Assembly (NCBI GenBank): GCA_038131935.1
Contig: JAYPQH010000030.1
Coordinates: forward strand, 94,302 to 158,301
Direction: 5' to 3'
DNA length: 64,000 nucleotides
Source: Alphaproteobacteria bacterium
GTDB lineage: Bacteria > Pseudomonadota > Alphaproteobacteria > UBA8317
In this document: positions 10,134 through 64,000 of the stretch, piece after piece
Numbering within the stretch: position 1 is the stretch's first letter
Layout of the letters: the number at the start of each line of letters is the position of its first letter
Translations under genes and position numbers: made by a program
The notes under the pieces: model-generated
What the model was told of the DNA's origin: nothing
The model's input: the letters and a program-made list of their open reading frames with translations, nothing else
Databases searched by the model: none

Positions 10134-10138
10134 AAATA

Positions 10139-20269: not shown

Positions 20270-20285
20270 ACGTTGAATAAATCAT

Positions 20286-22893: not shown

Positions 22894-22898
22894 TTTCT

Positions 22899-27744: not shown

Positions 27745-27745
27745 G

Positions 27746-30300: not shown

Positions 30301-30508
30301 AGTACATGGATCTCCTTTTATGGCGATAAACAATGGATGAATGGTTACCTGAAAACTTGATCGCAATCCCCACTCTGCCACTGCTATATTCACTGCACGC
30401 AACAAAAAAATAAGAAAGGATCAGCTCAACGAAAAGAATTCAAGGTACAGTGTGTAATTTGAAAAATAACACCCATAAAGCGTAAATTGGTATGGCTGTT
30501 TTAGCAAT

Positions 30509-30890
30509 GCTGTCTATTTTTTACTTGGCAAAGGTGGAATAGCATCTTGCCCAAAATCAAAACGAATTGATCAATATGATGCTGGAGCTAATCAGTCCTT
30601 GTTTGGTTGATAATTTGCCCTATTCAGCAATTAAAAGGTTTGCTGTGCTCCGAGATTATTTATTATATTTCAATTCATTAACGGTATTTTTTTTTGTTTG
30701 ATCCAATTAGCTTTATTCTTTGTTAAATGGGTAGAATTATTTATCGGAGAATTTATACTGCTATGTTGTGGAAAAGATGTGAAAATTGTGTAGCAGTAGT
30801 GCATTAGACGAGAATTGATGGCGGCAAAAGGTAAAAAAAATAGACGTAGCTGGCTTACGCGTCAGAAAAAGCGTACATGGGAGAATTCTC
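30509..30890 (+). repeat. Right arm of the inverted duplication: decayed regulator 3' end, promoter region and first 24 codons of the giant gene
   Basis: Reads YLAKVE*HLAQNQNELINMMLELISPCLVDNL versus regulator YAIKIDQDLAQNQSELMSLMVELMSTCVIDDL. Confidence 0.88.
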
Positions 30891-33800
30891 GAAGTCTGGT
30901 TGACCGCCTAGAAGACAGGATTTTATTGTCGGCCGATCCTCTGCTTCAGGCGGTGCGTATCGCCTCCGATAGCGAGCCAAGCATAATTTTTGTTGATGCG
31001 GAACAACAAGCCACCACCGTTGAGGTTACCAACAGCAATGTTGGATCGATTTCGCTGGATCTTACATCTCTTGGTGATATGGCGAACCAGAATCCATTGC
31101 TAACGCCGATCGATACAGACTTGGTCCGTCTAGACGCAACCATGCTCGCAATCGAGCTTGGTTTGGGCGATGCCAGTTTGACGGACTTGTCGCTCTCTCA
31201 GGAGAGTGATGGCACGCTTAGGCTTGGTGGTGATGGCGTTGTTGATCTGCTGTTCCAAGCACCAACTGAGAGCCTTGTGATACGTGGAGGGTTGGGTCTT
31301 GATTCGATAGAGCTAGAGTCTTTTTCGGTAGCTACTGCGGACATATTTATTGAAGCGGAACATATCAAGGTTGGTGAGGCAGCAGAGATATCGGTAGGCG
31401 GAGCTCTGACTTTGAATGCCATAGCGGGTTTTACTGAACGCCACACCGGATCCTTAGACGCACTTGCACTAGCCTTTGCCGATTCAACTTACAGTTCTTC
31501 AATCGAGGTTGACGGTAAAGTTTCGGTCTCTGGTGGGATGGTATTTGCCGCAGAAACTTCCCTTGCGCTAGATATTGATCATCAAGGCGATATAACGCCA
31601 GCCATACTGCGTCCAGAATTAGTCTCTGTTGCGTACATTGGAGCGAGTGCCGAACTTAATGCTGGTTGGTTGGAGCTGACCTCTGAAACTTCAGCTGATA
31701 TTGAGGTGGATGTTGACGGAGGTCTGGGCGTTATCTCGATAGACCTAAACCAAGTTAGTAGGTCGATGGTTTCAGGTGGTGCTAGCCTTCATCTCCATGA
31801 GAATGAAGGCGGGACAGTTCTTCTTGTCGATTCGTTTGGTCAGACCGGCTTAGATGCGCGATTTGCGCCAATTATCAATGATGGTGACCTGCAGGGATTG
31901 ATGGCCGGCCAGGATAAAACAACAGATACTGCTGGTTTTGATTTGGCTTATGCTGATTTTGCTATCAACAGAGATGTTTCTGCTGTCCTGGGTGATGGTC
32001 TAGACGTTTTGACAATTGGATCTCTAGATCAGCCAATAGCTGGTAGTATTTCAGTTGGTGCCGGCGCTCTAAATCTTGGTGACGCGGGTCTGAGTGTCTC
32101 CATCGATTCAGACATCACTGGATTGCAGTTGCTGACAGTCACCGATCAAGTCTTGGCGGAAATAAGGCGTGCAGAACTTGACGTGTTTGATATTGAGGTC
32201 CTTGCATATGCTGGCTCGTCAGCGGACTCAACGTCCAAGGTGGTTCAAAATCAGATGTATGGTTCTGTAGTTGCTAGAGTTATAGACTCTAGGCTTGGCG
32301 CCTCAAATGACATCTCAATCTTGGCTACAGATAACTCGACTTCCAGCGCGTTATCCTCCGATTTTGTGGCATCGGGTAGTCAATTGAAAGGCCTTGATAT
32401 TGGTATTGCTTACGCAACTAACCTTTGGTCAAGAGATATTTTGGCTCAGATCATCAATTCGGATGTGACCAGCTCCAATCTTTATTTGGAAGCGCAGGCA
32501 CTTGCCATATTAGACGCAGAAGTTGGGTCTCAAATTGTAGCCGAGGTAACGACGGGCGAGTCTGACCCAAGCTTTTCTATGGGGGGGGCGGTTGCCTCGA
32601 ATGAGGTGATGGGCCAGGTCCATGCGACGACGTCCGGTGGCTCTATTAGCGTTAACGGACTCTCTGTCCAAGCTTCCAATCTGATCTCTTTGCATTCCGA
32701 TACCGCCGCGGGTGCGGCATCTGCAGGTGATACCTCGTCTGCATTGGCGTTATCCTTTAATTTAATTGGATACACGATGACCGGAACCGTCGGTATGATT
32801 GCTGATTCAATACTGGGTGTGGATTCAGGGATCAAAGCAATGCCGCTTCATACCCTTGCTGAACTTCTTGATACTGAGGTGACCGTTAGCGGTGATATGA
32901 CGGTCGATGCTCGCAACGCGCTGTCGGTCAATTCATCCATCGACAGCTCGATCATGGCTGAAGTCGATGACCTGAGCGAAGCAATTGCAGTGGGTGCTGC
33001 TGTTGCATTGTCAACCAACCGATATACGAGCTCTTCAGTCACACGGATAATGGGTATATCAACCGGCCAGGCACGGCCATCATTGATCGTTGGTGGCGAT
33101 CTTTCGATTTCAGCGACAGACGAATCTGAGATCCTATCAAGTTCAGATGTTAGCGTGAATTCATTGGGTGGTGGGATTGCAGCAGGTGCGCTTATTTCCA
33201 ATAACCATGTTGATCGAGACGTATTGGTCGACCTATCTAACCGTGACATAGACGTTACTGGAACACTCTCAATGGCTGCACTATCGACCGGTATCCTGCA
33301 GTCGGCTGTAGAAGGTATTATCGAATTACCTGGTGCAATTTCATCGACCGAGCAAGGAGTCGATGATGGTTTAGGTATGAATGCTTTGGTGGCGTCTAAC
33401 ACAATGTTGGGTTCAACCATAGTCCAGTCCGATCAGTCAAATATGAATATCGGCGGTGATTTACTGTTGTCTTCAAAAACTTCAGGTTCAATTGATGCAA
33501 CTAACAGTGCTCTGACGTCGTCCTCGGGTCGTTCGGCCGGAGTAACAACAGCTTTTAATTCTATCGGATGGCAGTCGCAGAGCTTTGGCTCTCATTTGGT
33601 CGATGGACTCCTTGGTTCTAGGCTTGCTGATCAAGATCCGCTCAACACAACTGTTGATCTCGATGCGAGTGACATATCGATCAGCGGTGATCTTAATATC
33701 AAAGTTACACAAGTCCCCGAAATACGTTCGGTCGTTTCCAACGTTGCAGCGTCTGAGGCGAGTGGAGGAATGGGCTTTGTCTTGGCTACAAACAGAATTG

Positions 33801-36800
33801 CAAGGGACGTTGCAGCGGAAGTTCACCAAGGTGTTGATGTTGGCCAAGAAAATACTTCGCTTCAATTGGCTGGCGACATGACTGTCTATGTAAGTGATAC
33901 GTCTGGTGTTTCGGCGGTTCTTGATCTCGCGGCGTCTGGTAGCTTGTCATCTGTAGGTGCATTGGTCGCAAGAAATGATATCCGCGGAACGGTGGACGCA
34001 GTTTTAGGTGGCGTGCGCCTTGATGTTGGTGGCAGTCTTTCAGTTTTGTCTCGAATGGCTGCCACGATAACCGCCAGCGCCACAGGTGATGTAGTGGTAT
34101 CAGAAGATGCAGGGCTTGATAGTTTGGCTGCCAGTGCTCTGATATCGTCAAATACAATCCTGGGTGACTCTACCATTGATCTAAGTGAATCGATCATTGA
34201 GGTTGGTGATGAAACAGAAATACTTGCGTCCCAGATCTCAAAAATATCGGCCAGCAACTCCGCCAACGCGACGGGTTCCCGCGCCGCTTCGGGATTGATT
34301 GCCTTTAATGCGATTGGATGGGATGCTGGCAATTTGTTCGAGCAAGTCGCTACTGGTCTATTTAGCTCCAGCTGGCTTTCAGACAGCCCTGCTTCCGCTC
34401 CACTTGTGTTAGACGGTACTCATATTGTTTCTGGTGGTGGGATAGCCATGGAGGTGAGCTCATCATCAGATATAAGTGCCGACATTAAGGCTGGGGCTAC
34501 AGGCACATCCGGTGCAGCTGCCTCAGTTGTTCTGGCTACCAATTTGGTCAGTTCGAGGGCTCATGTCGCTGGTCGTCGAAGTGACTCAGCAACTCGGAAT
34601 ACAGAACTTATTTCGGGTGAATCCATACAGATTTTTGGTAACGATACATCTTCAATCATAGCCAATGTATCCAGTGATGCATCTTCAGATGGTGGATCGC
34701 TAGCGGTTGGTGGGGTGATCGCGCGAAATGAGATTGTGAGTTCTACTACCCTGGACTTCGACCATGCGAGGCTGGAGGCAGATGGTGATATCGCGATCAT
34801 TGTAAAGTCAGGAGCCGATATTGAATCAAGAGTTTCAGGTGTTGTCGAGGCATCGGTCGGGTCTGAGTCCAACGCTACGTCTCTGGCAATTAACGGTGTC
34901 ATCGCAACCAACGCGGTACAGAATAACGCCGACATAATCTTCAACCAGAGCCTTGCCGATGCGGGCAAATCAGTCACCATGAGCGCCTCTAGCCCATCCC
35001 GTGTGACCGCAAATAATACCGCGATTGTGACCTCGGATGGCCCTGCCGCTGGGGTAACTCTGGCCTTCAACACCATAGGAATGGCGCCGTCAAATATTTT
35101 CGCTACCAGCATCGACATACTATTAGGAGGCGTTCTTGCGAACGAGTCACCAGCTGGCAGCCAAGTCCTTGTAACCGGATCAAACATTAAGGCTGGAGGA
35201 GAGATTGAAGTTGCGGCAGGAGCGAGCCTAGAGGGTCATCAGCTCGGATCATTGGTGTCTTCGACAGTTGCTAACGAGGCAACGGCGGGTGAGGCCGCTG
35301 CAAGCTTTGTTCTAGCGACAAACCTGATCAATAGTAGAAATCGTTCGCTCATATCTGCTGGCAATCCTGACGACCTCGACCCAGCTAATCTGGAAAGTCT
35401 CGTCGATATATCGGCCGCTGGCGGTATATCAGTATCCGCTAGCGATGCCGCGATCATACGTTCTGATATCTCTTTGTCAGCAACCAGTAGTGGGGCTGCG
35501 GCTGTTGGAGGTGTGATCGCGACCAATGACGTAACGGCTGACACGATCGCGACACTTGATCGTATCAACTTGCGAGCCGGCGACACGACGATTGCGTCCC
35601 TCCAAATGGCTGCTATTGATGCGACCGTTAAGGGAGAAACCGTTTCAATCGATGACTCTGGTGCTGACGGGTTGGCGGTGAATGGTCTAATCGCATCAAA
35701 TGCTGTGAGGGGAGACACATCCGCACAGATTAGTGGTGGAGAGTTTCTTGTTGTCGGAGACCTCTTGGTAGACTCGAGGAACCGTGGATCGATTAGCTCC
35801 TCTAATGAAGCGACGATGGTATCTGGTTCGGGAGCGGTTGGTGCGACGCTGGCGTTTAATTCTGTCGGCTACGAGAAGCAAAACATTTTATCAAAGACCC
35901 TAGACGCAATTGTCGGTGGTGATCTCGGTGTGGAGTTGCCTTCTCAGTCAGATGCTCGAGTGACTGAAGTGAGTTTAGATGTGTTGGGTGATGTCTCAGT
36001 GGTCAGTCTGGCTGAGGGTACGATCTCGGCGATGACTACAAATGCGGCATCGAACCAGGGCTCTGGTACCACGGCAAGCATGGTGCTGGCTACAAATGCG
36101 GTCGTTGTAGAGACCGATGCGATCATTGAGGACTCAGGCCCAGTCAAGGATTCTGACGCGATTCGGGTCGGTGGCGATCTCCACGTAGCGGCCTCCAGTG
36201 CCTCGACCGTTCTGGCCGACGTGCTGGTCTCTGCGTCAGCCATAACCGATGCATCGTCGCTAGGGTCGGATTATGAAGCTGACTTCCTGTCTAGTGATGG
36301 AGAGCAAACACTGCAACTGGGCAATGTCGTCCATCTGACTCGACCATGAGGCCGGTGGGGACGCTGACTCACTGTACCTTATATGGGTCCAAGCCATGAG
36401 ACGATCGACCTTACCGTCACGGACTTCTCTGACGATGGCTTGTGGTACAAGGTGATTCCACCACAAGGCAAGGTTGCGGAATTAATTGCCAGCTTGGAGT
36501 CGGCCCAGATGCCGTACTTCGAGAAGTCCCTGTCCATCAGCGACCTGACGATCGCGGGTCAAACGTTTGATGTCGGCCTTGGGGCGGGGCTCGGCTGGCG
36601 CGACGTGGGGTTCCTTGATTTCTTGGCAGGTAATGCCGATCCGGTTACCTCAGAGATCTCGAAAACTGAGACGGGCCTGCACATTATCACCCCATCTTTG
36701 AACGTCGGCGGGCGCGAATTAGTTGGTCCCGAGTTGAACCTGGATATCGACCTTCCTAATCCGAAGTTACCCTATACGGTGTTTGAGGAGGAGCTGGGAT

Positions 36801-39800
36801 CCATTGAGCATGGCGGTCAGGTCTACTCGTGGGGTATCCGTGGCTTTGCGGGTTGGGAGGACACCACTCTACTCGAGATGATTAACGTCGACGCTCTGTT
36901 AGATGGAGACGTGAATCCGATCCCACCCGATATAGGCTTCGAGTTCTTCGTCGATGAATTTGTCATCGACGATCTCAGAATAATCCCGCCCGAGGTTCGG
37001 ATTACGCCCCCAGAAATTTGGTTAACGTTGTTCGGGAAACCGTTGAAACTGGCCTACGGCGACGAGATTGTGGTCACCGCCCCGAGTGAGCTGGACGACT
37101 ATATCGATGCTGATGCGGACCCGCTAGCGCTCACGATCCCTGAACTGAACCTCGACCAGCTGCTGTCTCCCACCAAGGTTGCCCAGTACCCGTCAGACTA
37201 CTGGAAAGACGCGCTGACCATCGATGTGCGTAACCCTGAGCTTCCGTACTTTGAGACGTTCCTTGCTGCCGGCTCCTTTGAAATTGACGGGCGAGACTGG
37301 GATATCGGTTTAGATGTATCAGTTGGTTGGGAGAACCAACGACTGTTCGACATGCTAGCTGGTGATTTACCCGTGAGTGGGATCGAGTTTGGACAGACGG
37401 GTTTTGTCCTACAGTCTCCAGGGATCGATGTTGCGGGATTTAGTCTGGCAGGGCCAGCGCTTGGAATTGATCTGGTGCTGCCCGACCTGGATTTGCCTTT
37501 TTACAGCTTCAGTGACGTAGTTGCGGAGTTTGAGATACCGGGGACCGGCGGAGAAACCGTCGGACTTGGCATTAACGCGGAGCTTGGTTGGAAAGACGCC
37601 ACTCTTATGGATCTGGTTGATGTTGGTGCCTGGATCGAGGGTAGCTTCGAGTCGGCCGAGCCCGTCTATGATTATTCCTTTTTCCTTGAGTACACCGACG
37701 ATAACGGTTCCACGGTGGGTGCGGTTCCCGATGTCATCTCTTTGGCCCTGCCCCAGGCTAGGGCCTCGGTGTTTGGCAAGAATGTCTTGTTTGGTGTCGG
37801 TAGCGGGCCTGTCGAAATCTCTCTGACGGACGTCTTGGGTGACGATTTTGGTGGCCTGATCGACGCGTCGATGGACCCGATTGAGATTGTCGCGCCATCG
37901 ATCGATTTGAATAGCCTGGTCGACCTTGATCCCAGGACATATCAGCCGGATGGGAGTGAGATTCTGATCAACGTCCTCGATACGTCGTCGTTCGAGAGCG
38001 CATTTTTCGAGTTGATAAAGGTAGTACCTGGAAACTACGGGTTCACTGACTCGCCCCTGGTTGCGGCGATTGACGTGCTGGCGGATGAGCTGATTCCGTT
38101 CTCGCTAACTAGCTTCTCGATAGACGACCTGATGCCGACTGAGGCATACGAAAAGATCAAGTGGTTTGTCGACGAGGGTGCTGAGACTGTTGATCTAACG
38201 ATCCCCAGTCAGGTCTATGATATTCCGGGCATCGGGCTCTTCTTAAGCAACCCAATACTCCCTAATATTGAACAAAGTCTGGACGCGACGACGATCGAGT
38301 TGGCCGGAGAAATGTGGGATATCGGCCTGTCCGCGTCCCTCGGTTGGCAGGGCGCGCGACTGATAGATGTGTTGGCTGGCGAGGCGCCGGCGTCTGGTCT
38401 CAGCGCCCTCGATACTGGTTTCGGAATCCAGTTCCAGCCAGAGGGAATAAACCTAGCCGGCTTCAACCTTCAGGCGCCCTCGTTGCAGGTTGACCTCAGA
38501 CTGCCCGACCCGGATCTCCCATTTATCGAGTTCGACCAGACCATCGCCGAGATCGATATTCCCGCGAGCAACGGGGCAAAGATCGGGGTAGGCGCGTCCG
38601 CGAGAATCGGGTGGGAGGATACCTCTTTGCTCAACTTGATCGACCTGGACGCGCTACTGAACGGTGAGTTCTCAGCAGTTGCGCCCGAGTTCGAGATAGA
38701 CCTGCGGCTCGAGTACACAGACAGCGAGGGTATGGGATCCAGCTTCCTCCCGGGTGAGATACATTTGGCCTTGCCCGACGTGAAGCTCGAGTTGATGGAT
38801 AAAACGCTGCTCCTTGGGTTCGGGTCGAGGCCGATCGAGTTCGAGACCAGCCGCCTAGGCATCAGCTCGGGCTTTATCGATGAGTCACTCGAGCCTTTGC
38901 TGATCGACCTCCCGACCCTCGACCTCAACCGACTGATTGACCCGACAGCAGATCTTTCTTTGTTGACCGACCTGAGCGACCAGACGTTTTACTACCAAGT
39001 CCAAGGGTCTGAGATTGAAGTAGACGTAACCGATCTGGATAGCTTAGAGGCTGGCTTCAGGCGACTGATCCAAGTTCTACCATCCGAGTTTTCGATCACG
39101 AACCCGACAGCGACCGGCGAGTTATTGGGTCTCGCGATTGATACGGAATTACCGCTACTTGAATTATCCGGCAGCCTGCAGGGCTCGGGGCTCATTGATT
39201 TCAACCTGTCGAGCTTCGGTCTGGAGGACGTACTGACGTCCGATATATTCGAGTGGGTCCAGCCGCTGATCGATCCGGAGGCGAGCCCTGTCACAGTTAA
39301 TATCCCCGACTTTGATTTTGGCACCCTAGGGTCACCGATCCCTGTGCTCGACCAATTTTTGGAGCAGATCGAGTTTTTACCATCCGAGCTGCGTGTCTAC
39401 GACCCGTCACTGATCGCCCAGGTCACCTTCGAGCTGTCAGAGCTGCTCTCAGAGCAGCCCGGCATGAGTCTAGTCACGAGCGTCTTACCTTTACCGACGA
39501 GCTTTGACAGCACGATTGATCAGGAGGTTTCGGTTTCAGGGTTAGTCAGTGACGCACTTAGTCGGCTCGGTATCGACTATCTCCGGTTTGGTTCGGATGA
39601 GACGGGTACCTACATGGCATTCAATGTCATCGACGTGTTACCGGAGTCGGTCGCGGATATCCTGGGTATATTTGTTGATCTCGATGACCCAGAGATACGA
39701 TCATTTGAGATCCCAAGCTTTAGTTTCGGGACCATCGACATTAACGCGCTTATCGGTGGCGACCGTTCGTCAGCGAGCACACAGGCCGCGTCTTCAAGCC

Positions 39801-42800
39801 AAACTCAAACAGTTACCACGACAACAACGGAACAGACCACCGAGGCACCTGTCAATGAAGACTGGGTTGCCCTCGACAGCGTAACCAACGCGCGGAGCGG
39901 TCAGTCTGAGATACAAAAGCTAACGCTCGACACGAAGGATGTTGACTTTTCTACCGGATCGATTGGAGCCAGCCTGGGCTTGGGCCGCATGATCACCGAC
40001 CCGATTGAGATTTTGGAGTTAGGTGAGTCGAGGGACGCGATCCAGGCCGTAAGTCTGCTCAGCGCCTACGACCTTGTCGGGCACTCAGTCCCGGCGAGCT
40101 CTTACGAGCTGACCCTGTCGCATGGAAGGCAGCCGGTCGGCAGCAACGAGAAGTTCCGTTTTTACTTTGAGGGTGATCCAGACGTTCAGTCGAAGACAGC
40201 TCGATTCTTGTCGACACAGACGTCCCGGCAGCCCGATGAAGTTGTGACCGCTCTCGCGGATTTGCTGGGAATCCAGGGTACAGCAGAGCGTGTCTCACGT
40301 GGCGTATATACCCTGGGCGGGATCACTGCCGCCTACACATCGAATGCTCCCGCAAACAATCAGCGGATCTCTATTACCTTCTCGGATACCTTGGCTGAAC
40401 GCCTGGACGGGGTTGGTGAGCTAAAGGTCACGATGATTACCCCGGGATCGAACCTGAGGCCGTCACTGGAAGCCCTGGATGGTAGCGACCTGCCGCCGGC
40501 GACGTTCGCATACAGTGTGAGCTTGGGAGGCCAAAAGACCAAGGCGGACTTTATCGCGCCATCGTCTCGAAGCCTAGCCGATATCGAAACCGCGACAGAA
40601 TCTAACCGAGCCAGTCTCGAGAAGGCGCTGGAGGACCTGGTCGGCTCAGGGAACGTGTCGGTAGGCACTGACTACGGCTCAGAAGACGCGTGGCTATTCG
40701 TGGTGACATTCCAGGGGCAGCTCGCCGGGCAGCAAGTCGGGTTGGTGTCGGTTGAGGCGTCCGGGGCAGCCGATGGTTCGTTGTTGGTCGACAGCGCACA
40801 CCTGGTTGAAGGCCGTCGGGCCACAGACGCCACGATGCAGGCTGCGCTTATCGAGGCAGGTCTAAACGACGCATTCGGAGGCACCGTGGCGCGTGTCGAT
40901 GTGTCGGACAACAGCGCTGTCGACGCGGTTGTGTACGAGATCCGCTATACCGATCAGCTCGGTGACCTTGACCTACCTCAGATCCGTAACACCAGCCCAG
41001 TCGATGGCCTGGTCGTAACCGTAGACACGGAAGTCAACGGCAGCGCCGCGAGCGGACCTCGATTCGTGCTGGACCAGGCATCTGTCGAGGATGCCTCTAG
41101 CTTTGACGTTAGGGTGTCAGTCAATGGTGCCCAGTACATCGCGAGCGCTCTTGATTCTGATATTTCTGCTGACGCGCTGGCGTCCGCGATCAAGGGCTCG
41201 GAGTACCTGTGGGTGACAGAGCTCGAGACGGGCGAAATGATCGAGGAGATATTTAGGTTTTCCGACCTAGGCCTCGATCCGTTAGTCACCCAGGCATCGA
41301 GTGCCGACGGGGGTCAGGGCTATATCATCACGTTCGCCGGCGACGTCTCGAACTACCCGCTGGACGGGATCGAGATCCGGCTCAGCGGTTCGGTACCAGA
41401 GCAGTCAGACCCGGCTAGTCAGTCACCAGATAGGGACGCATCGGCGGTCGGCGGCATCGTCGCCAGGAATGACATCAGAAGCACTTCCGTCTCAGGTATC
41501 CTGAATTCTTCTGTCTCCGCGTCGGGAATCTCGATCTCTTCTACCGACAACGGAATAGTAAGAGCCACCCTCGACGCTACCGCAGAGGCCGCCGGGTCCG
41601 AGGGTGATGGGATGGCAGTCGGTGGCATAATTTCGGCAAATATCGTGCAGGGTGGCGCGTCAGCGGTTATCGAAAACAGCCGGGTAACATCGCAGGGTGA
41701 TGTGTCGATCAACAGCATCAACAGCGCCCACATCGACGCCACCAATAACAGTGCCGTGACCGCTGGCGAGACGTCCGTCGGCGCGACTCTCGCGTTCAAT
41801 ACCGTCGGATACGAGGCCTCGAATATCTTGGCGCAGGCCGCTGATGCACTCGCAGGCGCTGGCTTCGCGGTGAAGAATCCGAACCACACGATTGCCCGGA
41901 TAGTCGGCTCCGAGATCACCGCGTCTGGTGGCCTCGTCGTTGACGCACGCTCTGAGGCATATATCCGGGCGAATGTAGATAATGAAGCAGTCTCTTCTGC
42001 CGCCGCCGCTGAGGGTAAGTCGAAGGGCGGGGTCTCGGCCGGTTTCGTGCTGTCCAGTAACTTCATTGCGGGCGATACAAGAGCATTAGTCGACAATGAT
42101 GGAAATACATTATCTGCCGGGCTTCCTGGTCTAACCGTTTCCGCGGTCGATGATGCGGCGATCGACTCACAAATCAACCTTACCTCGGCGGTCGAGGCCG
42201 GAGGGTTGGGACTGGGCGATGCCGCCAGATCGATCATGGATTATATCGGCATTACCTACACCGATCATTCGGGTATCCAACGCCTCAAGGTCGGCGACAG
42301 GGTCAGGTTAGGTTCAGCAGAGTACGGCGAGCTGGATAGTCCGACAGAGATCCAGACCGGCGAACGGGTCACGCTCCAAACAAACATCGGGAACGGTGCC
42401 GCGGGTCAGACTTATGAATATCTTGGTCAAGACCTGCTGACGAACGCCAGATTTGCCGAGCAGGACTTCTCTGATACCTCACTGTGGAGACGGCTGCTCG
42501 GTGACCCCGGAATGGTCTACGTTTATACCGGACCTGGTGAGGCACTGGACCTATCACAGACTGATTACACCGATACGTCACGCTGGACCGCCCTAGACCT
42601 TCAGGGATTTGTCGAACTGGGGCTGGACGTACTCGATTCGATCGGTGCCGAAGATGGCTCAACCGCGGTGGGCGGACTAATCACGAGGAACAGCCTCGAT
42701 GGGTTTACCTCGGCCAAAGTCTTAAATTCAGATATCGTTAGTCAGGGTGATGTGGTTGTCGAAGCCACGCGGTCGGGTCGCGTAGTCGCGGCTGATAACA

Positions 42801-51800: not shown

Positions 51801-54800
51801 TGGCGGCCCCGGTCGCGCTGAATTCTGTCACCGTGACCCGTGAGGATCTGTTCGATGCCGACACCGCCGGCTGGGATCCCGCAACCTTCTCGGTCTACGG
51901 TTCCGACGCCATGGCGCCCGGGTCAGATGACCCGTCGTGGGTCAAGATCGGGGAGGGTCAGTGGTCGCTCGACGACCTCCCATCAGCCAGCTCACGGGCG
52001 GAGTTCGACAACGAGACGAGCTACCTGACCTACAAGCTGGTGTTCGATGAGACCAAGCAAGACCTCCGTGGTCTGGATCTGTCGGCCGTCTCAGCTCTCG
52101 CTACCGAGCTGGGCTACCCTGATCTGTCTGAGCCGGAGCTGATTACTCTCGCGGAGTTACTACTGGAGCGTGACAATTACATCCACATCGCTGACCTGTC
52201 TGTTGACGTCGCTCGGAACAACTCGGTGTCCTACACAACAGTCGACGCACTGGCTCTCGAGCAGCCGGCGGACCAGCAATTGACGTTTGAACCCACCGAC
52301 GGCCAGTACTATGTCTGGGTCGAGGGACAGGAATCGACCACCAAGACCATCAAGACCTATGTGACACGCGAGGCGGGTCTGTTCATTAAGTTTGATGCGC
52401 TCGCTCGGGATCGGGTTGAACCAGATCAGGTCGATGGTCCGGTGTTGCTAGACGACGCTCCTCTTCTGGAGTCAGAGTTCATCGCGATCGCCGATGAGCT
52501 CGGTATTGCGGGTGAGCCGGTGTTCAATCTCGAGTTTTATGCAAACACGGTGACGGACGTGATACGGGGTAACCCGGTCGTGATCAAGGACACATGGTTT
52601 GTTACCGAGACCGAGGTCAAAGATACCTACGTCGAGGGCCGGAAAGATTTCTACACCTACGCACTGAGGGCTGATCTGCCGGTCCTGATCGCGACCGACT
52701 ACGTCGCCGACCAGCCGGAGATCAAGATTGAGACACCGGCCGGCCTCAGTCTGAGCGGTGATATTACCCTTGGGATTGCGAACCCCGATGCGGTATTGGC
52801 CCCTGGAGAGGTGTTCAGGCCGATTGCGTTCGACGCGACGGCGATTGAGATCGCCGACGACGTCATGTTTACGGGAGCGGTACCCGACCTCAGCGTCACG
52901 GGTGACGTGGTGATCACGCTGCGCGATATCGATCCGAGGAGCCTGATCAACATACTCGCGACCGGTGACGTCACGATTTTGTCCCCCAAAAATCCTGCGG
53001 TGGACGACCTGACTGGTGGCGGCGCGTTGAGGGTTGGTCAGATCGTGACCGGACAGATAGACGATACCGGTCTACCCACCGGGGGCGACTTCGGGGACGT
53101 GGTAATCGACAGCTATTATGGCATCCAGCAGGCGCCAGGTGGTAACTCACGGATCATCGCCGGCACGGTCGAGTTATACGCTGACCGCGGCAACGTCGAC
53201 GTGACCGTCGATACCGCGGCCGACGGAACCGGGGGGGTCGTTGCACAGGCTTCGGGTAACATATCCATCACCGAGGCCCGTGGTGACCTTCTCTTGATAT
53301 CTCCGGACGGCGACAGTCCGTCGATCTCGACCTCAACGGATGTGTACCTAACGACGCTCGACGGGTCCGTGATTGACGCGATCGAAGAGCGCCCCGCTGG
53401 CCGGGTCAGCAGGGAGCTGGAGGCGGCTCTACTGCCGCACTCGGTCGTCGACGCGGGTACTGTCACGGAGCGGGTCAATGTAAGGGCCCGGAACCTGACC
53501 ATTCAGAGCGACGCGGACGTCGGGACGGTGCTCGGTCTGACAACGATCGAGAGCCCGTTCGGTGGCCGGTCACTGTCCGACACTGAGCTCCAGGTGATGT
53601 CTCTTGCGACCGCTGACGATATCGCTGCGACCCATTACCGTCAGTATGAGTACCTTGGGCCAACGGCGACCTACGACCTCAGTGTTGAGGGAATGTTTGG
53701 TAACTCTGGACTTTGGCGTGCTGTGTCGGCGTCGGCGTCGGATCTCTCAACCGAGGATGGCATGTCTGAGGTGATCACTGGTCAGATCGTCGAGGATAGG
53801 CGCGATCTGGTCAGCGTCACGCTGCGTACACGTGACGCTGTCGATATTGACTTGTCCGGTAGTCTGGCGGTGTCGGCTGCTGGTCACGCCGCGCTGACCT
53901 CTACCGGTTCCCTGTTGGTCGAGACTGGTCAGAAGGCTGTCCAGGGCGTCACGGTCTCCGGAGACCTTTACCTCGGCTCGGGGCAAGACATCACTGTGAA
54001 TACCTCAGAAACATCATCGCACGCGCTGGTGAGCGGCGGCTCGATGTCTTTGCGTGCGGCGGGTGATATCGCCGGTGCGTTTGTAACGGGTGCCTACGAG
54101 GCCCTCACCGTAGGGGCGGCAGGTTCGTTTTACGCGACCGCGGGCGGCGATGCCTACCTCGCGGCGCTCTCTGGCGATCTCACCGTGGGTCGCATAGAGG
54201 CGGCTGGGCTGGTCTCGGTATCCGTGTCAGGCGGACAGATCCTCGACAGCGTCGCTACCGGGGACACGGGTCGGAGCCGTCTGGTGGGCACAGAGCTCTG
54301 GCTCGCATTGAGTGACGCTACCGGATCGGTCGGGTCCTCCGCCAGCCCGCTGGTGATCGATACGGAACGGCTAAGATTAGAGGTATCCCAGGCCGGGATC
54401 GCACAAGACGTGGTGATCGAAAACGGTGGCGACCTGATCCTCGATGCACTGGAAAGCGACAAACTTGGCCTGATCAAGCTCGGGGCATTGGGTGACCTGA
54501 CCTTTGCGGCCGACTCGGTCATGACCACAGGTAACGGGCGCCTGGTCCTCGACGCGTTATCCGGCGACCTGATCCTGTCCGGTGACTTGAACGTAGGACG
54601 CTCGGATCTTGAGCTGAACGCGACCGGCGACTTGGTCCAAAAATCTGGCTCGACGGTCCGATCCTCAGATGGACTCGTGTCGGTTGTCACGGGCTCTGGT
54701 TTTACGCAGGCCGCGGGTGCAGAGATCCTCACCACCGGGCTCGACAGTGAAATCGACCTCGACATTGGTAGCGGTGTGGTGCTGGCCCGGGCTGTCGCCG

Positions 54801-57800
54801 ACACGATCAAAATCAACGCAAGGTCTGGAGACATCTCGTCCACCCTAGGCTCGTCCGGTGTCGTGATCGACGCCGAGGGAACCTTGAGCCTATCGGCTAC
54901 CGGTTCGGTCGGTACCACGGGCCTATCTGGGGGCGCGCTTAACCTGGCCGCGGGCTTGCTCGATATCGACACAGGCTCGGACGTCTCGGTACGTGGCCAC
55001 GGAGACCTGGTGGTCGGCTCGTTTGTGCTCTCCGGCCAGGACGTCTCAGTTTCTGTAACAACCCAAGCATCGGATACAAAGGACGGCGACCTGGGTCTGT
55101 CAGCGGATATCGCTCTTGGCCAGACTGCGGCGGTTTATCTAGGCGCGGCAGGTGACCTTTTTGTGACGTCGTCACGCTCGGTTGATTTGGGGGATGGGGT
55201 CGCCACACTCGACGCGGGCGGCATGATCGTCCTGGGCGACGCCTCCTCCATCACCGCCGCCGATGACCTCTCTCTTGAGGCTGTGGGGACATCACGATGG
55301 GTGCCGGTAGCCTCGTCGAGACCACAGGGGACGTTCTGTCGGTCTCGACAGAGGGAACACTCTTGGTAGAGCGCTTACGTGCCAACACGATCTCTGGGAC
55401 GGTCCTCGTCAGTGCAATCGGGGATGTGTCCGTACGGGCGTTATCTGTCGGTGGGTCACACGTGACTGCTGACCAACTGGTGATCAGCAGTCGCGACGGA
55501 TCAATAGGCTCATCCGTCGGATTAAGTGGGATGATCTACCTGAACGCCGACGTAAACTCTTTGGTAGGGTCCGCCGACACTGGGCTCGCAATTCGTGCGA
55601 CCGGAGACCTCGAGATCACCGCGCAGCCGCCTCTGGGCCATGACATGGTGAGCGCAGGAGGTCTCATTGGCCGTTCTATGTCCGCGGGGTATCTTGGTTT
55701 GTCGACCTCTTCCGGAGACTTGTACCTCGACGTGTTGGGGGCCCTGACGGTTGCATCTAGTTCCGCCAACGGCGACGGGTTCGGGATCCATTCGGCCCGC
55801 GACCTGACCGTCACAATCTCCGGTGACCTCTCGCTGGGCGCCGGTATCGGGGCCGCGGACCGACTGACTGTTAATGTCGGTGGGTCGGTGACCGCGGCCG
55901 GAGGACCGGGGCTCGAGGCCATTATAAAAATCGCGAAGGGCACCACCGAGCTGCCGGCTGCTGACGATATGACCTGGACCATGATGGCCGGGCAGGATCT
56001 CACCCTCGACGTAGACGGCGCCGTGCCCGGTCTGTCGGTCGCGGCAGACACCCTGACCGTCTCGGTAGATCAGGGCGACCTAGCGCTAGCCGTCTCCGGG
56101 TTCTTTGACTATGGCGGGGATGTCGAGCTGACCAGCGTCGTTGCTAGCGACGGTGACGTGGCGGTCATGGCACGTGGGTCGGTGTTAATAGTCGACGTAC
56201 GCGCCAAAAATTTGGGCGAGGTCGGTATTGTTTCGGTGGATGGTGACGCGACCATCTCTAGCCAGTCGTCGGTCGCGTCGGTGGGTACGGTCGCGTTGGC
56301 GGGCCTCGCGGTGCGTGCCGCGGACACGGTCCGTGGGACGTCGGGGATATCGACCGCCAGCGCACGGACGGTCTACTACGGAGGGCCAGCGTCTCCGTCT
56401 GTCGGCCGACGGCGCAACCGACTCGCTCAACCCGGGCGCCTCGGGCTACGCGGGGACGGTCAGCTTCGTCAGCGACGGAGTCATCGAGGTCGACGAGGAC
56501 CTCAGCGCGGCCGGTGTGGTTGTCACCGAGCCGGCGCCTCTTCCGAGCTCACTTTATTACTATAGTAAGTGGGATGCAGCTTACGCTGTCAGGTTTGGTG
56601 GTTCGTCTCCTGACGGCGAGGATGTCACCAATCTGATCGACGGGACAAAGTTCTCGAAGTACCTGAACTTTGGGGGGCGTGATACCGGTGTCTACCTCGA
56701 CTACGGCTCGCCGGTGGTCAAGAACGTCGCCGAGTTCGTCAGCGCGAACGATGCACCCCACCGTGATCCCTATAATTTTAAAATCTACGGGACCAATCAG
56801 CTGGGTAGTCTTTTTGGTTTACCTAATTACGCCACAGCGAGCTGGACCCTACTCGATAGTTCGGTCCGGACCAACCTGCCTACGGCCAGAGAGACGGTCG
56901 CCCCGCTGGCCGAGTTCGAGAACCAGACCGCCTACCGCTACTATAAGGTGGTGTTCACGGGGCTCCGTGGGGGTGGGTCCGATGACTACGTCCAGCTCGC
57001 GGAGCTGACCCTCGCGACCAAGCCGACCCCAACCACGACCATCGACACGAGCTTCAGCTTCGAGCTCGACGCGGGGGTCGGGATCGACTGGCAGACCCAG
57101 CAGACCACGATGGACAACGTCGTCACCACCTCGGACGACCTCGCGGTAACCGTACCCATCTCGGGTGGGGTCTACCAGGGCGACTTGGTGATCGACGACA
57201 GTTGGCTGGCCGCCAACCTACCGGGGGGTGGCTCGGTCGCGGCGACCGGCACGATCTTCCTCGACCAGGTTGACCCATCGTCGTATGTAACATTGGACGT
57301 TACCGCAGCTGGCCTGATCGGTGACGCCCAGAACCTCACGCTGACCGGCTCAATCACAGGCGATGTCAGCCTGTCGTCCTCGGGGTCTTTCGGGATCGGC
57401 GACCTGACAGCGGGCGGTAACCTCAGAGCCGACGCCCAGCTAGGGCTGTCGGTCCGTGGCGAGATCGACGTCTCCGGATGGTCACACCTTGCTACCGGCG
57501 GAGATTTATCGTTCGAAAACGGTGCCGTCGTCGCTACCTCGTCGCTGTCGCTTGACGTTACGGGAGACGTTGCGACCACCGCCAACGCCGGTACCGTGGA
57601 CCTGGGGGACACCGGTGCGATCTCCGGACACGTGGGCGGCGATGCGTATCTGCAGGAACGTTCGGGAGACCTCCGTCTTGGTCGGTTGTCGGCCACCGGT
57701 GACATGGCAATCACCTCAGCTACAGGCGACCTGGTCGGGCTACAGACGGGCCCCGGGGCCACACTCCGGTCCGGTGGTACCCTGACGCTGGCAACCCCCA

Positions 57801-60800
57801 GCGGCTCGGTTTTGGATGATGACGGCGGTCCGCTCGAGACTATCCAGTCGACTCTTTCGTTCGATGTGTCGGGTGACGTCGATATCAGGAGCACCGGCAC
57901 TGTCCGGCTCTCCACGTCCAGCGCGGGTGGACTGGTTGATATCTTCTCGACAGGCGTTCTCCGAGTCGATGGACAGATGGACTCGAACGCCAATATGTCG
58001 TTGACCAGCTGGGGCGACCTGTCCACCGCCGCCGTGGTTACCTCGGTCAGCGGCCGTGTGGACCTCGCTAGCCTCGGTGGTGATGTGTCCGCGATCGGTG
58101 ACGTCGTGTCTCGTGGGGACGGGGCTCGACGGTACCGTGAGCCTCTACTCGGCCGGTAACCTCACGGCCACTGATGTTGCTGGCGGTGACGGTGGCGGGA
58201 TCATTGTCGAGAGTGTGTCCGGATCGGTGGCCCAGGCATCAGACAGCGTGTGGTCGGGCGACACGATCGTGATCGAATCAGACGGCTCGGTAGGGACTGA
58301 CTCGGCCCCCGTCACGATCCTCTCAGACACATTAGCTATCGAGTCGATGACCGATGTCTGGGTGACCTCAGCGGAATCATTCTCTGTCGGATACGAGACA
58401 CTTTCTGGCCGAAACCTATCAGGAATAACGTCGGTTTCCGGTGGCGACGTGAGCCTGTCCGTGACCGGTCCCGGTGGTATCCTGGAGGTCGATACCGAGA
58501 TCAGGACCAACGGTACGGGCGCCGTCAACCTCTCGGCTGACGGTTCGCTCGGTGTCGTTAGGCTGGGCGGACAGGTTGTTGGCTCGGGCGGTGACTTCTA
58601 CGTTAACGCGGGCGGCTCGGTCCAGGTAGTGTCCGACGGTTCGACAGCATTAGGTGACCGGGTTAGGTTCTCGGGCCGGTCGGTCTACGAGGCCAGCTCT
58701 GGGATCCGGTTTGTGGCCGTGGACGGTTCAGACACGGGCGGTTTCTTGTCGAGCTACCTCAGTGACGGGATCATCAGCGTAGTCGGCGATCAGACTTTAC
58801 TCGACGGCCAGGGTCTGATCCTGTCGGTTAACTCGGTAGACTCGTATGGCGGGCTGGAGGTTGATGGCTCACTGACACTCGCGGGCTCGAGCGAGCTCGT
58901 GCTCGAGGTCGATCCGGACTTAGACCTCAGGGGCCAGACGCTTGACCTGATCAGTGCGGGCTCCGTGACCGGAAGTTTCGGTTCAGCCCGTGGCCTGTTT
59001 GGCTATGGTGACCTGTCAGAATTCTTGAGGCTCGAGACGGTCGACGGGGTCGGAACTGACCGGGTTACTGTCAGCGAGTCCGACCGTCCGGTCGCCGACA
59101 CTCTTAAGATCACCCCGCACAACGACTCGGACGCTGACAGCCTCGGGATGCTATTTAACCCGGACTACTTCGGTGAGGGGCAGAGCTACGTGGTGGGTAT
59201 GACGCTCGGTGCGGCCGACTTCTTCACCGTCGACGGAGACTTCGTGCTGTCCCAAGACACCGCCGACGCTGCGACCACCCGGGCCGATGGATCTGTCGGT
59301 ACCGGCCTAGTCGACGCTCATCGCTGGCTGATCGGGGGCACCGGGCTTGACGGGTTCGTGGGCCTAAACGGGCCCTACCGTCTGGACACCGACCACGACG
59401 GCGACCTGGCCGACGAGTCAACCAACAGCTCCGCGGTGGGTCTCGAGCTGCAAGATATCGACGTCGGTCTGGCCATCTACCTAGATAGGACCAGTACCGA
59501 CGGGTACCTGGCCGTCTCTGCGTCGACCTCGACCGCGTCAGACGTGGGGGTCCCGGTGTTTGACGTCACGGTCAACGACCTGAACGTCAACCTCAACCTA
59601 TCGACCAGCGGTTCGTCGGTCCTCGATCTTGCTGGCGACGCCGCGCTCACGGTCCCTATTGACGCCACCGGTGCTACCACAACACTCGACTTTGATGGCC
59701 AGCGGGGCACGCTCGTGCAGGCGGCCGGAGACATCGACGTCCGGGTCGACGAGCTGATGACTGTGTCTGGCTCGGTCGCGTTCGAGCGATCCACACGCGA
59801 TCTAACGTTGGCTAACGGGTCTACGACCCGTGCCGACATGCTCAGCTTTGGTGGTGACGGCCTCGATGCACAGCTGGGCGCTGGCTCGGTCGGCCTCACC
59901 GTCTCAGATCTCGCGTTCGGTGCGGCTGTGTTTAGCTCTCAGTCACCCGACCTGGGTGACGCCCGCTGGGCGTCCCTGACAGCGACCGCCGGCGGTGTCA
60001 CTCCGTCGGCTGTTGGGTCGGCGTCGGTCGGTGCGAGCGACCTGTCGGTCGAGGTGAACATGGTCCACGGCCTACCTTCAGGTATCGCGGGAGACCGGAT
60101 GGTGATCGACTACAGTCCGGACGCAACCGGTGCAATCGATATCCTCACCGGTCCCGACTCGTCTGCGTCTATCGACTTCGATGGCTCGCTTGGGCAGCTC
60201 TTGAAGGCAAGCGGATCAATGTCGATCAAGGTCGGAGACTTCCTCGAACTCAGTGGCTCGCTCGGTTTCGAGCGGAGCCTCCAGACGGTGTTAGTCGACG
60301 GCCAGTCCGTGACCACCGAGATGATCAGCGTCGGGGGCGCCGACCTCGAGGGTTTCGTGGGCATCGGCCCGTACCGGATAGATCTCGACAGCGACGGACG
60401 GGTGGATCAAGACGAGATCAACCCAGACGCGCGCGGCTTCGTGGTCAGTGGCGTCAGTTTCGGGATGGGGACCTTCTCTGACCAGAACTCCGACCGCCAG
60501 TGGACCGCGGCCCATGCCGAGGCCGGTACGGTGGGCGGCATGCTTGGGATACCTGAAGACGTCAGCCTCGACATCTTTGACCTCGGGGTCGGGCTCAACC
60601 TGGCTGCCGCGGACGGATCAGTGATCGATTTCTACGAGATCAACGGGGACCTGAACACGCAGTCGCTGGATATTCTGGCCGGCACCGGCCAGACCGTCTC
60701 GCTGGACTTTGACGGCCAGCGTGGTGAGCTCAGGCGCGCGACCGTCGGGGCGCAGTTATCGGTCGGCGACTTCTTCCATGTGGGTGGCCAGATGGCGGTC

Positions 60801-63800
60801 GAGACCTCCGCGGTAGAAGTCTTACTCGCCGATGGCTCGGCTACGACAACTGACCTGCTGACGATCGGTGGTAGCGGGCTCAACGCGTTCGTGGGTGCCG
60901 GTGGACCGTACCGCTCGGATACTAACGGTGACGGTGTAATCGACCTCGACGACGCGATCAACCCAGACGCGACCGGACTCTCAGCGACCGGTGTCGAGTT
61001 CGGGTTGGGTCTGTTTGACGAGCCGGGCGCCAACGGCCGGTCGTGGACCGCGCTGGTCGCCAACGCGGCCGAGGTCTCCATGGTCGGGACCGAGGGCGTC
61101 ACGGCAGTGGCTAGGGCCGTGTCTGTCGAGCTGAGCAACGCAACAGACGGCCAAGGAACACGTTTGTCAGATAGCTTGGTCCTCGACCTCGCGTCGCTGC
61201 CCGGGGGAGGTCTCGCGATCGCGACCGGTCTGAGTACACAGGTGACGCTGTCCACCGAGGGCTCTAAGGGACAGCTGGCGAGGGCCTCGGGGGACTTCAG
61301 TGTGTCCGTGTCGGGCGTCGCCGAGATCCACGGGACGCTGGCGTTTGAGCAGTCCAGGGGATTCGTGAGTCTGGCCAACGGCTCTACCGTCGAGGTCACG
61401 CAGCTGACCGTCGGTGGCGACGCGCTCAGCGTGTTTGCGGGCGTTGGCGGTCCCTACTTTATCGATACTAACGGTGACGGGATAGTGTCTGCCACTGAGA
61501 CCGACCGTAACACCAACTCGGTCGGATTCGCGGTCGACAACGCCTCCCTGAGGATGGGTATATTCAGCGCGGACCGCGGCGCGGTGAGGGGTATGGATGG
61601 CGCACGCTGGCTCGGCCTCGATCTTTCCGCGACCGCGGTTGGTTTCGTGGGCACCGACTCCGTGACCGCCAGCGCATCAGACCTGTCTCTCCAGATCAAT
61701 CAGGTGCTCGGCGATACGTTTGGGATCGACCGAGACCGTTACGTGATCGACTTCGAGTCGCTCCCAGTGGACGTCGAGACGGGCTCGAGGATCGAGACTC
61801 TTGACGTGACCGGTGGCCTCGGAGAGATGATCAGTGCCACCGCTCAGCTAGAGATAGCGGTCGGTGGCTTCGCGTATCTCAGTGGCGGGTTTGGGTTTGG
61901 CTGGGGCCGTCGCCGGCTCGCGACAAGTGACGGTAACACTCATGAGCACGATGTCCTCGAGGTCGGCGCCAGCGGCGTGGTCGGCTTCGCGGGCATCAAC
62001 GGCGGTCAGTTGGTCGACACTGATGGTGATGGTGACATCGACTCGGATGACACCGTCAATCAGAACAGCGCAGGCGTAAGTATGTCGGGCGTGGATCTCG
62101 GGATGGTTTTTGCTGCCGACCGGAGTACCGGGTCGCAGCGGTTCGCGCTGGACGCCGATGTTGGCTCAGTGAGTCTCGTCGGTTTGTCTGACCTGACGGC
62201 CCAGATCGACACCGCGAGTCTGGCGCTCAACTTAGCCGGCTCTGATGGTGCGGTGCTTGACCTGTCCGGCGGGCTTGAGGTTGCGACCGGTCCAGACTCC
62301 TCGAGGACCCTGTCGCTTGACGGCGACACCGGTGAATTAATGGCCGTGAACGCCAACGTCGCCCTCGGCCTCGGTGGCGGGGTCTCGTTCTCTGGGGGAA
62401 TCAGCCTCGAGAAGTCGGCGGGTGAAGTGACACTTGCCAGCGGGGATGCCCAGATCGCGACAGACAGGCTCCTGATTGGTGGGGCCGACCTGACCGGTTC
62501 GGTTGGCGAACCCGGTGGCCTTGGTCTCGAATTCTCCGGTGTTGACTTGGCTCTGGCGGTGTTTGACGCGGTCGATGGTCAGCGGACGGCGTCTGGTGTG
62601 TCACTCGATACCCTCCAGTGGTACGCGGCGAGTGCCTCGGTCGGTGGGGCCTCGTTCCGTGGAGTAGAAGACCTCACTCTGGGTATCGATTCGCTCGCGG
62701 TCAGCGTCAACCAGGTCAATGGATCAATCGGGGCAGTCGACCCTGATGATCTCGTGATTGACTTCGCGGCGTCACCACTGACGGTGACACTGTCGTCTGA
62801 GACGTCCCGCGTGATTGATATGCCCGGCGCAGACGGTCGCCAGGTCTCCATCGCAGGAACCGTCGATCTCGCAATCGGGGACACCATAGCGCTGAGCGGC
62901 GACATGGCGTTCGCGATGTCCCGGGGCGACCTGAAGGTTTCGGGCGGCAACGATGGGTCGGTTGATGCCAGCCTGATACACGTCTCGGGCGCAGACATCG
63001 CTGCCAGATACATGTCGGCGGGGCCTGATAGTCTCGGTGTAGACCTCCAGGGGCTTGGTTTTGACCTGGTCATCGCGTCTGACCGCGGAAGTAGTGACCG
63101 TTGGCTCGGTCTCTCGGCGGTCGCGTCGAGCGCGTCATTAGTAGGCTTACAAGACACTGGGCTCGCGCTTGCTGGGGAAAACCTGGCGCTTGCGGTCAAC
63201 ATGGGTCTGGGTCAAACCGATAGTGTGATCGACTGGGCGACAACCGGAGCGGTTGGTGCATCGGGCGTCATGCTCGGTATGAACGATTATCGCCTCGCGT
63301 TGTCGGGCTCGGTTGCGATTGCGATGGATCAGGCGAGCCTCTCGGGACAGGTACTGGTGGAGGTTCATCGTGGCGATGTCACCGTCGGAGGTGTCTCGGT
63401 CGCGACCACAGGTCTCATGATCGGTGCGGATGATCTTAGTGGCTCGGTCTCCGGGGTCGAGGTTCAAGGTCTCGAGGCAGGCCTTGTCTTAGTCCGAGCC
63501 GACACTGGCTCGGATACAGACAGCCGCGGCTGGCTATCCATGCGTGCGTCCGCTGATACCGTCTCGCTAGACTCCGAGGCACTCGGTCTGCCTGACCTCC
63601 TCGACGCGACCGCGACCAATCTCCGCTTCGGTATCAACACTGGGTTTGGCCAGTACCACGGGGAGACCAATCGGTCTGTCCTAGACCTTGCGGGTGACCG
63701 TGCGATCTCAGTTAGCTCTCAGGTCGACGGTTCTGGTGCCAGCACGGTTTTGGATTTTGACGGTGCGGACGGTGTCCAAGTCTCGATCGATTTCGACGGC

Positions 63801-64000
63801 GAGATCGCTGTCGGTACGGTACTTGCGATACAGGGCAGCTTCGGGATCCAGAGGGTCGGTAACCGCCAGGTGTTCCTCAAGGACGCGGAGCAGCACGTGA
63901 CGATGGCCGCGACCACGATCGTAGCGACTGGCGTCTCAGGCCGAGCTGGCTTAAACGTTGATGATACGGGAAGCTTCCAGGGACTCAGCCTGTCTGATGG
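30818..64000 (+). CDS. Giant LEPR-XLL-leader repeat protein (putative adhesin or surface protein), >11,000 aa, incomplete at window end
   Basis: LEDRILLSAD leader motif. ORFs 30815-36349, 36383-55369, 55297-56565 and 56228-58159, plus an unlisted frame from ~58121 that is in the same phase at the window end, join by small indels with repeat continuity. Composition is Gly/Ser/Ala/Asp/Val-rich, beta-solenoid-like. Confidence 0.88.

Follow-up and report, generated by a model that had tools for sequence, protein, structure and literature searches.

On the forward strand of the stretch of DNA analysed here, 64,000 nucleotides of contig JAYPQH010000030.1 from the alphaproteobacterial assembly GCA_038131935.1 (the window), five long open reading frames (ORFs) lie end to end between 30815 and 63998, and the question they raise is whether they are five genes or one gene read in pieces. 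A preliminary description, made from the letters alone, proposed a single gene of more than 11,000 codons, still unfinished at base 64000. Together the five ORFs (Table 1) cover a single coding region of about 11,060 codons, which continues past the contig end. The window stops where the contig stops, so that the 3' end of the gene lies beyond it, and the 11,060 codons, counted from the ATG at 30818 up to base 63998, are a lower bound. As described earlier, the 1844- and 6328-amino-acid (aa) ORFs share a frame, both starts being 2 modulo 3, and the last ~5.9 kb (58056-63998) is coding sequence that meets no stop in the window. The ORFs are joined at four junctions, each a single-base frame slip, with five insertions or deletions (indels) altogether; we call the stretches between the junctions pieces A to E. 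We conclude that 30815-63998 is very probably the 5' part of a single gene for a giant secreted repeat protein, divided into five pieces by five indels that are most likely consensus errors.

Junction 1 separates the first two ORFs. Read in the next frame, the bases between them give LDHEAGGDADSLYL, and the module to which this text belongs (…G.xVxL..DHxxGGxxGxxYxYxG….DLSxxDFSDxxxW) recurs intact in the 6328-aa ORF, at residue ~2847 (EHSSGGLAGRVYRFVG) and at residue ~3164 (DHSAGGLAGLTYEYIG). The preliminary description had seen that 40 nt in the +1 frame complete a repeat found later, and had explained the stops by two compensating indels; both points held up against the relatives. Metagenome contig L002 (protein P0002) is open over all 6,894 bases analysed and is collinear with window positions 33437-40267 across junction 1, with 46% identity over 2,310 columns. 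At the junction L002 has ALDHEGGGDTDALYRYMGPDG; the corresponding text in the window's own frame is T-RP*GRWGR*LTVP. The in-frame text of L002 at the indel pair is ALDHEGGGDTDALYRYMGP. Exhaustive and word-index protein searches added P0006, P0009, P0011, P0012 and P0018, all with ...DHEAGG..IYRYMG... in a single frame; in P0012, from a metagenome-assembled genome (MAG) of Planctomycetota, and P0018, from a Magnetococcales MAG, the read-through starts from LEPR-type N-termini of their own. In all, six more distant relatives are in-frame through junction 1, and the window has two stops there because one base was gained and one lost about 40 nt apart.

For junctions 2 to 4, much closer sequences, from near-identical strains, were available. 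Twenty public sequencing runs from 13 studies, sampling estuary, seawater, marine, biofilm, mangrove and pond habitats, contain 27-38% of the words sampled from 55000-58400, and Logan contigs of four runs from four independent studies were aligned to this interval. An extra G stands at 55281-55284 in all four runs (junction 2), one base is missing at 56382 or 56386 in all three runs that cover junction 3 (run X1 has no contig across it), and one base is missing at 58115 in all four runs (junction 4). Some of the contigs that bridge the junctions hardly differ from the window, with other letters at 5 of 197, 6 of 226 and 2 of 248 positions around junctions 2, 3 and 4, respectively. These base counts are exactly the changes demanded by the frame order of pieces B to E, which is 2, 1, 2, 0, and they place the joins within or beside the sites at which the preliminary description had put them (~55287, ~56340-56390 and ~58120). 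Relatives are thus uninterrupted at all four junctions, as the proposal of one gene in five ORF pieces implies. In a hand tally of 36 substitutions in the frame of piece D, drawn from the 40 displayed of 413 differences between the window and the relatives' contigs, third codon positions account for 20, first positions for 13 and second positions for 3, which, on these alignments, is the pattern of a translated gene. An open frame of 6328 codons is far beyond chance, whatever the composition; because there are also homologues, a confident fold (below) and this substitution pattern, the region is read as coding. Between 56546 and 56573 the relatives' contigs gain and lose single bases in pairs, 3-10 bases apart, so that the frame is restored within a few codons; the cause is either divergence at this site or a further pair of compensating errors on the window's side.

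That the pieces are separate genes with starts of their own, or are joined by programmed ribosomal frameshifting, is extremely improbable. An in-frame ATG, GTG or TTG can be found near the 5' end of each piece, but a single protein module spans junction 1, the relatives have no shift at any junction and hence no conserved recoding site, and C and D, and D and E, overlap by 338 and 104 bases in differing frames.

The breaks are instead most likely sequencing or assembly consensus errors at short homopolymers. This explanation is favoured because rpoC and secA slip in the same assembly and because the relatives' frames are intact. The rpoC gene lies in four frame pieces (contig C17, 49802-50959, 50884-51159, 51093-53300 and 53252-53998; three slips), and canonical secA is split between two frames (contig C18:160239-162166; one slip). 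Within the window, the methylmalonyl-CoA mutase gene (7918-10144, + strand) occupies at least three frames (8304-8999, 8975-9451 and 9310-9852), its ORFs matching Pfam profile positions 181-396, then 399-512, then the B12-binding domain; the acyl-CoA dehydrogenase gene (4443-6135, - strand) occupies two (5335-6135 and 4443-5444, profile positions 2-75 and 74-113), with the break inside the N-terminal domain. On this explanation, five single-base indels at or beside short homopolymers would have divided the giant gene, and the living gene would have none of them. Alternatively, the frameshifts might be real in this strain, the gene being a pseudogene recently inactivated by slippage at G runs and intact in other strains. 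Short homopolymers are natural slippage sites, and the relatives differ from the window at exactly the indel sites, as real mutation would also give. But essential rpoC, with its three slips, and canonical secA, with its one, are equally damaged, which is impossible in a living cell; five independent lesions in one gene, in the absence of other decay, are unlikely; and the G+C content at third codon positions (GC3) is far above that at second positions (GC2) in the proper frame of every piece, C, D and E included. We therefore consider a pseudogene quite improbable.

The protein begins with a leader of a known family. The NCBIfam LEPR-XLL domain (NF012209) matches residues 29-49 of piece A (~30899-30961), scoring 24.3 bits (cut-off 17; E 1.6e-5), the LEPR-type motif being LEDRILLSADPLL. 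The rest of piece A is built on a super-repeat of ~250-260 aa for which AFNxIGW motifs are a marker. Piece B opens with ~1,100 aa of all-beta modules, followed by a linker and small-domain region; the A-type repeats return behind ~1,690 aa of different all-beta modules, and a second NCBIfam family, the tandem 53-residue repeat LktA_tand_53 (NF012206), reaches 130.6 bits (cut-off 50) over 10 stretches of the first 4,000 aa of B. AlphaFold2, given a 6-row alignment of residues 901-1420 of piece A, returned a model with a predicted local distance difference test score (pLDDT) of 88.6 and a predicted template modelling score (pTM) of 0.88, in which strands of ~20 residues form rungs. When this model was compared with known structures by VIA-align, beta-solenoids came out on top, with pectate lyases and tailspikes ranking after them: CsgA (Z 14.9), HxuA (Z 14.5; root-mean-square deviation (rmsd) 2.8, 179 residues aligned), EtpA (Z 14.4; rmsd 2.3, 195 aligned), FHA (Z 12.7) and Vag8 (Z 12.5), these matches spanning ~180-250 of the 520 residues, in a class of repeat folds that reach middling Z easily. 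The 520-aa segment is thus confidently predicted to fold as a beta-solenoid like those of the FHA and EtpA adhesins. The corresponding model for residues 1-500 of piece B was too poor for a fold search (pLDDT 58.9). A hydropathy scan of all pieces gave no convincing membrane helix. From these features we infer a leader-bearing, non-membrane fibre of the adhesin kind, in which a short LEPR-XLL leader would be followed by long beta-solenoid segments broken by all-beta modules and LktA_tand_53-type repeats. The protein would be exported to form an adhesin-like fibre at or outside the cell surface, its export route, leader cleavage and adhesive function all being presumed.

The base composition of the gene is not uniform. 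GC3 is 0.42-0.51 in piece A and 0.63-0.79 along pieces B to E (0.68-0.73 per piece), the genome reference being 0.407 +/- 0.055 with a 99th percentile of 0.558 (996 ORFs of at least 300 aa). Pieces B to E thus lie more than 5 standard deviations above the genome mean, among the most extreme values, and all 5-kb windows above 0.55 G+C fall in the giant gene. The change is sharp at junction 1: adjacent 300-base bins there (36083-36682) go from 0.54 to 0.71, the 3 kb before have GC3 of 0.38-0.57 and the 3 kb after 0.51-0.76, and from there to the window's end (36383-63998, 27.6 kb) GC3 holds at 0.6-0.8. The step can be read in either of two ways, as replacement of the 3' part of the gene, at least 27 kb, from a G+C-richer donor, or as a chimera of two homologous genes. 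Other ORFs of at least 300 aa with GC3 above 0.70 are only C25:4512-6581 (+) and C18:114104-115189 (+), in small G+C-rich islands.

The step raises the possibility of a join at junction 1, either in a chimeric contig or in a gene that is itself a recombinant mosaic, with piece A from the 45% G+C host and pieces B to E from a homologous giant gene of a G+C-richer organism. Besides the step itself, and the extreme composition of B to E, this would account for the two indels located exactly at the step and for the flat GC3 of L002 (0.50-0.62) across the same point. It would also fit the rise in identity between the window and L002, from 46.5% in the 700 aa that precede the junction to 64% in the 200 aa that follow, which is not seen in other pairs. 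On the other hand, the order A then B is ancestral, being found in one frame in six relatives; the GC3 rise begins inside A and continues through B; identity to L002 is back to 50% over the first 1,295 aa of B; and the small G+C-rich islands elsewhere mean that foreign DNA is not unusual in this genome. A join of either sort at junction 1 is therefore unlikely, and, chimera or not, the statement that there is one gene holds for each parent.

Along with the composition step, several results weigh against a single intact gene for a giant adhesin-like fibre. The rpoB gene, which adjoins rpoC, is intact, so that indels are patchy in the assembly rather than everywhere. The junctions were compared with relatives, and the window is the only direct record of the strain, a point that also favours real lesions. 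When all pieces were searched by tblastn against the 67 contigs, no continuation of the gene was found on the other 66. Pfam gave no family in any of six pieces scanned, that is, in 11,060 aa (E <= 0.01), and on nine sub-segments only sub-threshold hints, namely F5/8 type C (E 0.15) and, both below their cut-offs, EF-hand_5 (1.6e-4) and TraK_N (1e-4). Because Pfam families were not found, the assignment of function rests on the fold, the leader and the neighbours. For the fold, in turn, the structural matches cover less than half of the model, and Foldseek found nothing in the PDB for the 901-1420 model at E <= 0.001.

Among candidates for the missing 3' part, contigs C43, C53, C52, C5, C8, C24 and C32 were rejected as holding only repeat-protein fragments of 20-25% identity and genome-like G+C, and the G+C-rich 3' end of contig C3 as having no long ORF. 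Some of these contigs do show that the genome has more large repeat-protein fragments with genome-like G+C (C43:3-10996 (-), C53:3-4307 (-), C52 and C5), 20-25% identical to the repeats of the giant. The C43 fragment amounts to at least 3,600 aa, is divided into three frame pieces and continues beyond the contig end.

Table 1. Features of the giant gene and of the neighbouring cassette, in window coordinates.
Feature	Coordinates	Strand	Length (aa)	Remarks
ORF 1	30815-36349	+	1844	
ORF 2	36383-55369	+	6328	
ORF 3	55297-56565	+	422	
ORF 4	56228-58159	+	643	
ORF 5	58056-63998	+	1981	no stop before window end
Piece A	30815-36343	+		frame 2; TTG at 30815, ATG at 30818; LEPR-XLL leader, then predicted beta-solenoid repeats
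Junction 1	36344-36382	+		~13 codons meaningful only in next frame; flanked by one gained and one lost base
Piece B	36383-55284	+		frame 2; all-beta modules, linker and small domains, then predicted solenoid repeats and LktA_tand_53-type modules
Junction 2	55281-55288	+		window one base short of relatives, at or next to GGGG run
Piece C	55285-56384	+		frame 1
Junction 3	56382-56386	+		window one base longer than relatives, in GGAGGGCC
Piece D	56385-58115	+		frame 2
Junction 4	58115-58118	+		window one base longer than relatives, in GGGG run
Piece E	58116-63998	+		frame 0; open to window and contig end
TolC-family outer-membrane factor	27746-29380	-		transcribed away from giant gene
HlyD-type membrane-fusion protein	26911-27780	-		
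HlyD-type membrane-fusion protein	25067-26707	-		
M50-like HExxH protease fused to HlyD-like part	22899-25070	-	723	at least 6 hydrophobic segments
Short SecA paralogue	20977-22893	-	638	canonical secA elsewhere, on contig C18

Upstream of the giant gene, on the opposite strand, lies a cassette of five genes (Table 1). The 723-aa protein has an HExxH intramembrane protease domain, NF041824-like but below the cut-off (E 1.1e-51), and an HlyD-like tail; its homologues match Peptidase_M50 and HlyD_3. An ATP-binding cassette (ABC) transporter was not found among the ORFs scanned (15776-30405). The same genome has a second, paralogous cassette, on contig C8:6352-15270 (+), downstream of another broken repeat protein. 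The two cassettes are 33-37% identical for the M50-HlyD gene and the SecA paralogue, and the place of the TolC gene is taken on C8 by a 546-aa ORF matched by position alone. Both cassettes also have a 232-aa ORF of no known family. Neither the ORF at 19523-20269 (+) nor that at 20286-20984 (-) matches a family; the two are paralogous, at 26% identity, and the C8 cassette has a third copy. Farther upstream in the window, the rnpA-yidD-yidC cluster (11733-14141, -) is ordinary and its frames are intact.

Homologues of the M50-HlyD protein were found in 20 of 300 other sampled alphaproteobacterial genomes, and seven of their neighbourhoods, picked for long contigs, were examined. In four of the seven, the gene lies beside HlyD genes and a protein with a LEPR-like N-terminal motif; these LEPR-like neighbours are of 2,345, 2,623 and 3,083 aa, the fourth being cut by its contig at 813 aa or more, and a TolC-family gene was identified in three of the four neighbourhoods. 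NF012209 was formally passed by one of the four N-termini scanned. One of the other three neighbourhoods includes a protein of at least 1,814 aa; the last two include no large neighbour. The short SecA paralogue was seen only in the window's genome, and the core without SecA recurs beside large LEPR-like proteins in other Alphaproteobacteria.

The cassette and the SecA paralogue are likely to be the export and processing machinery of the giant protein. Possible, but doubtful, is a more specific scheme in which LEPR-XLL would be the leader of an undescribed, ABC-free export route: the M50-HlyD protease, in the inner membrane, would recognise and perhaps clip the leader, the two further HlyD proteins and TolC would carry the protein, and the SecA paralogue would be the motor in this organism. 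The scheme draws on the presence of the cassette twice in the genome, each time beside a large repeat-protein gene, and on the homologues and neighbourhoods just described. When the protease domain was modelled in complex with residues 1-70 of the giant protein, the median score was 0.55, the best of three controls giving 0.00; the runs agreed in at least 53% of contacts, and the pLDDT of the partner was at least 47. In calibration, 116 of 157 solved complexes and 2 of 215 mismatches came up to the mark of this tool; those passing at 0.60 or below were 18 solved complexes and both mismatches, a range in which a pass is wrong in most cases unless the guess was already likely. We treat the modelled contact of protease domain and leader as a weak lead and not as a result. 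Among the literature matches listed, judged mostly by title or abstract, we found no description of such a cassette, and LEPR-XLL appeared in two papers, as far as those matches tell in passing mentions only.

The host would be an uncultured marine or estuarine alphaproteobacterium. Its rpoB is 73-76% identical to those of diverse Alphaproteobacteria, and the comparison set included one genome of the same genus (G001), the other sampled relatives sharing only the class. In G001 nothing matched the DNA of junction 1, piece A or the beginning of piece B, but this genome is 84% complete and hence uninformative; the 300 other sampled alphaproteobacterial genomes gave no A-type repeat homologue at E <= 1e-10. 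The named relatives are scattered over Methylococcaceae, Magnetococcales, Planctomycetota, Rhodobacteraceae and Ca. Magnetomorum. Most are labelled 'partial' by NCBI, under the names LEPR-XLL domain-containing or beta strand repeat-containing protein. An exhaustive search of 1.84 billion representatives with the start of piece B gave 13 matches, namely the window's own B-piece protein (P0003, 6,286 aa) and 12 fragments of 238-1,733 aa. A word-index search of proteins of 3,480-11,074 aa returned the window's own protein alone, a shorter query against longer proteins, in the range 2,976-5,000 aa, had no match, and a scan of genome contigs with the piece-B-start alignment recovered no relatives.

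Large proteins with a LEPR-XLL leader are already an annotated kind, and the giant gene adds a member to it, a modest novelty. Like other LEPR-XLL proteins (NF012209, LEPR-8K), the giant has the N-terminal motif above the curated cut-off, large size and repetitiveness; relatives named for the domain are known from MAGs of Magnetococcales, Rhodobacteraceae and Ca. Magnetomorum, and the leader of P0018 is nearly identical. What sets the present protein apart is its length of at least 11,060 aa, still unfinished, in a deep-branching alphaproteobacterium. The LktA_tand_53 repeats ('tandem repeat-containing filamentous protein') are above the cut-off here and occur also in P0012, but the repeat type is all that is shared, and in the giant, from an environmental marine host, there is no sign of toxin activity. 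A 2026 preprint reports LktA-like tandem repeats from secreted leukotoxins as well as from a giant protein of Chlorochromatium.

With FHA, HxuA, EtpA and autotransporter passengers, the giant shares the right-handed beta-solenoid fold of its modelled segment, which is a likeness of fold only; its strands of ~20 residues and the lack of a significant Foldseek match count as differences. Exoproteins of FHA-type two-partner secretion (TPS) have an N-terminal TPS (haemagglutination activity) domain, which Pfam did not find in piece A, where the LEPR-XLL leader stands instead; no TpsB-type gene is present among the annotated or scanned neighbours, the downstream side being off the contig. An autotransporter barrel was likewise not found by Pfam in the giant protein. 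LapA, SiiE and MpIBP are type 1-secreted giant RTX adhesins. The present protein resembles these in being a giant, repetitive, non-membrane protein encoded near TolC-family and HlyD-family genes. It differs in that no RTX or other Pfam repeat was found in its 11,060 aa, the C-terminus lying past the contig end, in that the membrane-fusion and TolC components are present but the ABC transporter was missing from the neighbourhood scan, and in that its export signal appears to be N-terminal.

As to size, the preliminary description called the protein exceptionally large. This calls for some moderation. At least 11,060 aa is large, but the NCBIfam label of the leader family is LEPR-8K, and West-Roberts et al. 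2023 (bioRxiv 10.1101/2023.11.21.568195) report that proteins of at least 10,000 aa are frequently detected in several phyla. In the size classes given there, the present gene is 'large' (>10,000 aa) and not 'giant'. The giants of Omnitrophota type, as described by these authors, have at least 30,000 aa, many transmembrane regions and a SecA DEAD domain inside the protein. The common element is a link to a SecA DEAD-type ATPase, which is here a separate neighbouring gene, the SecA paralogue; the giant protein itself, unlike those giants as described there, has no SecA domain in cis by Pfam and, by hydropathy only, no convincing membrane helix.

In sum, the locus should be annotated as one gene of at least 33 kb and not as five. 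With breaks even in rpoC and secA, no pseudogene call made on this assembly should be trusted until it has been polished. A LEPR-XLL protein of more than 11,000 aa, almost the whole of which is invisible to Pfam, is added to a deep-branching marine alphaproteobacterium, in a class that, as sampled, is otherwise without A-type repeats. The composition mosaic within one gene and the recurring cassette could outweigh the size of the gene in value, and the occurrence of the cassette beside LEPR-type giants would make the unexplained LEPR-XLL leader testable.

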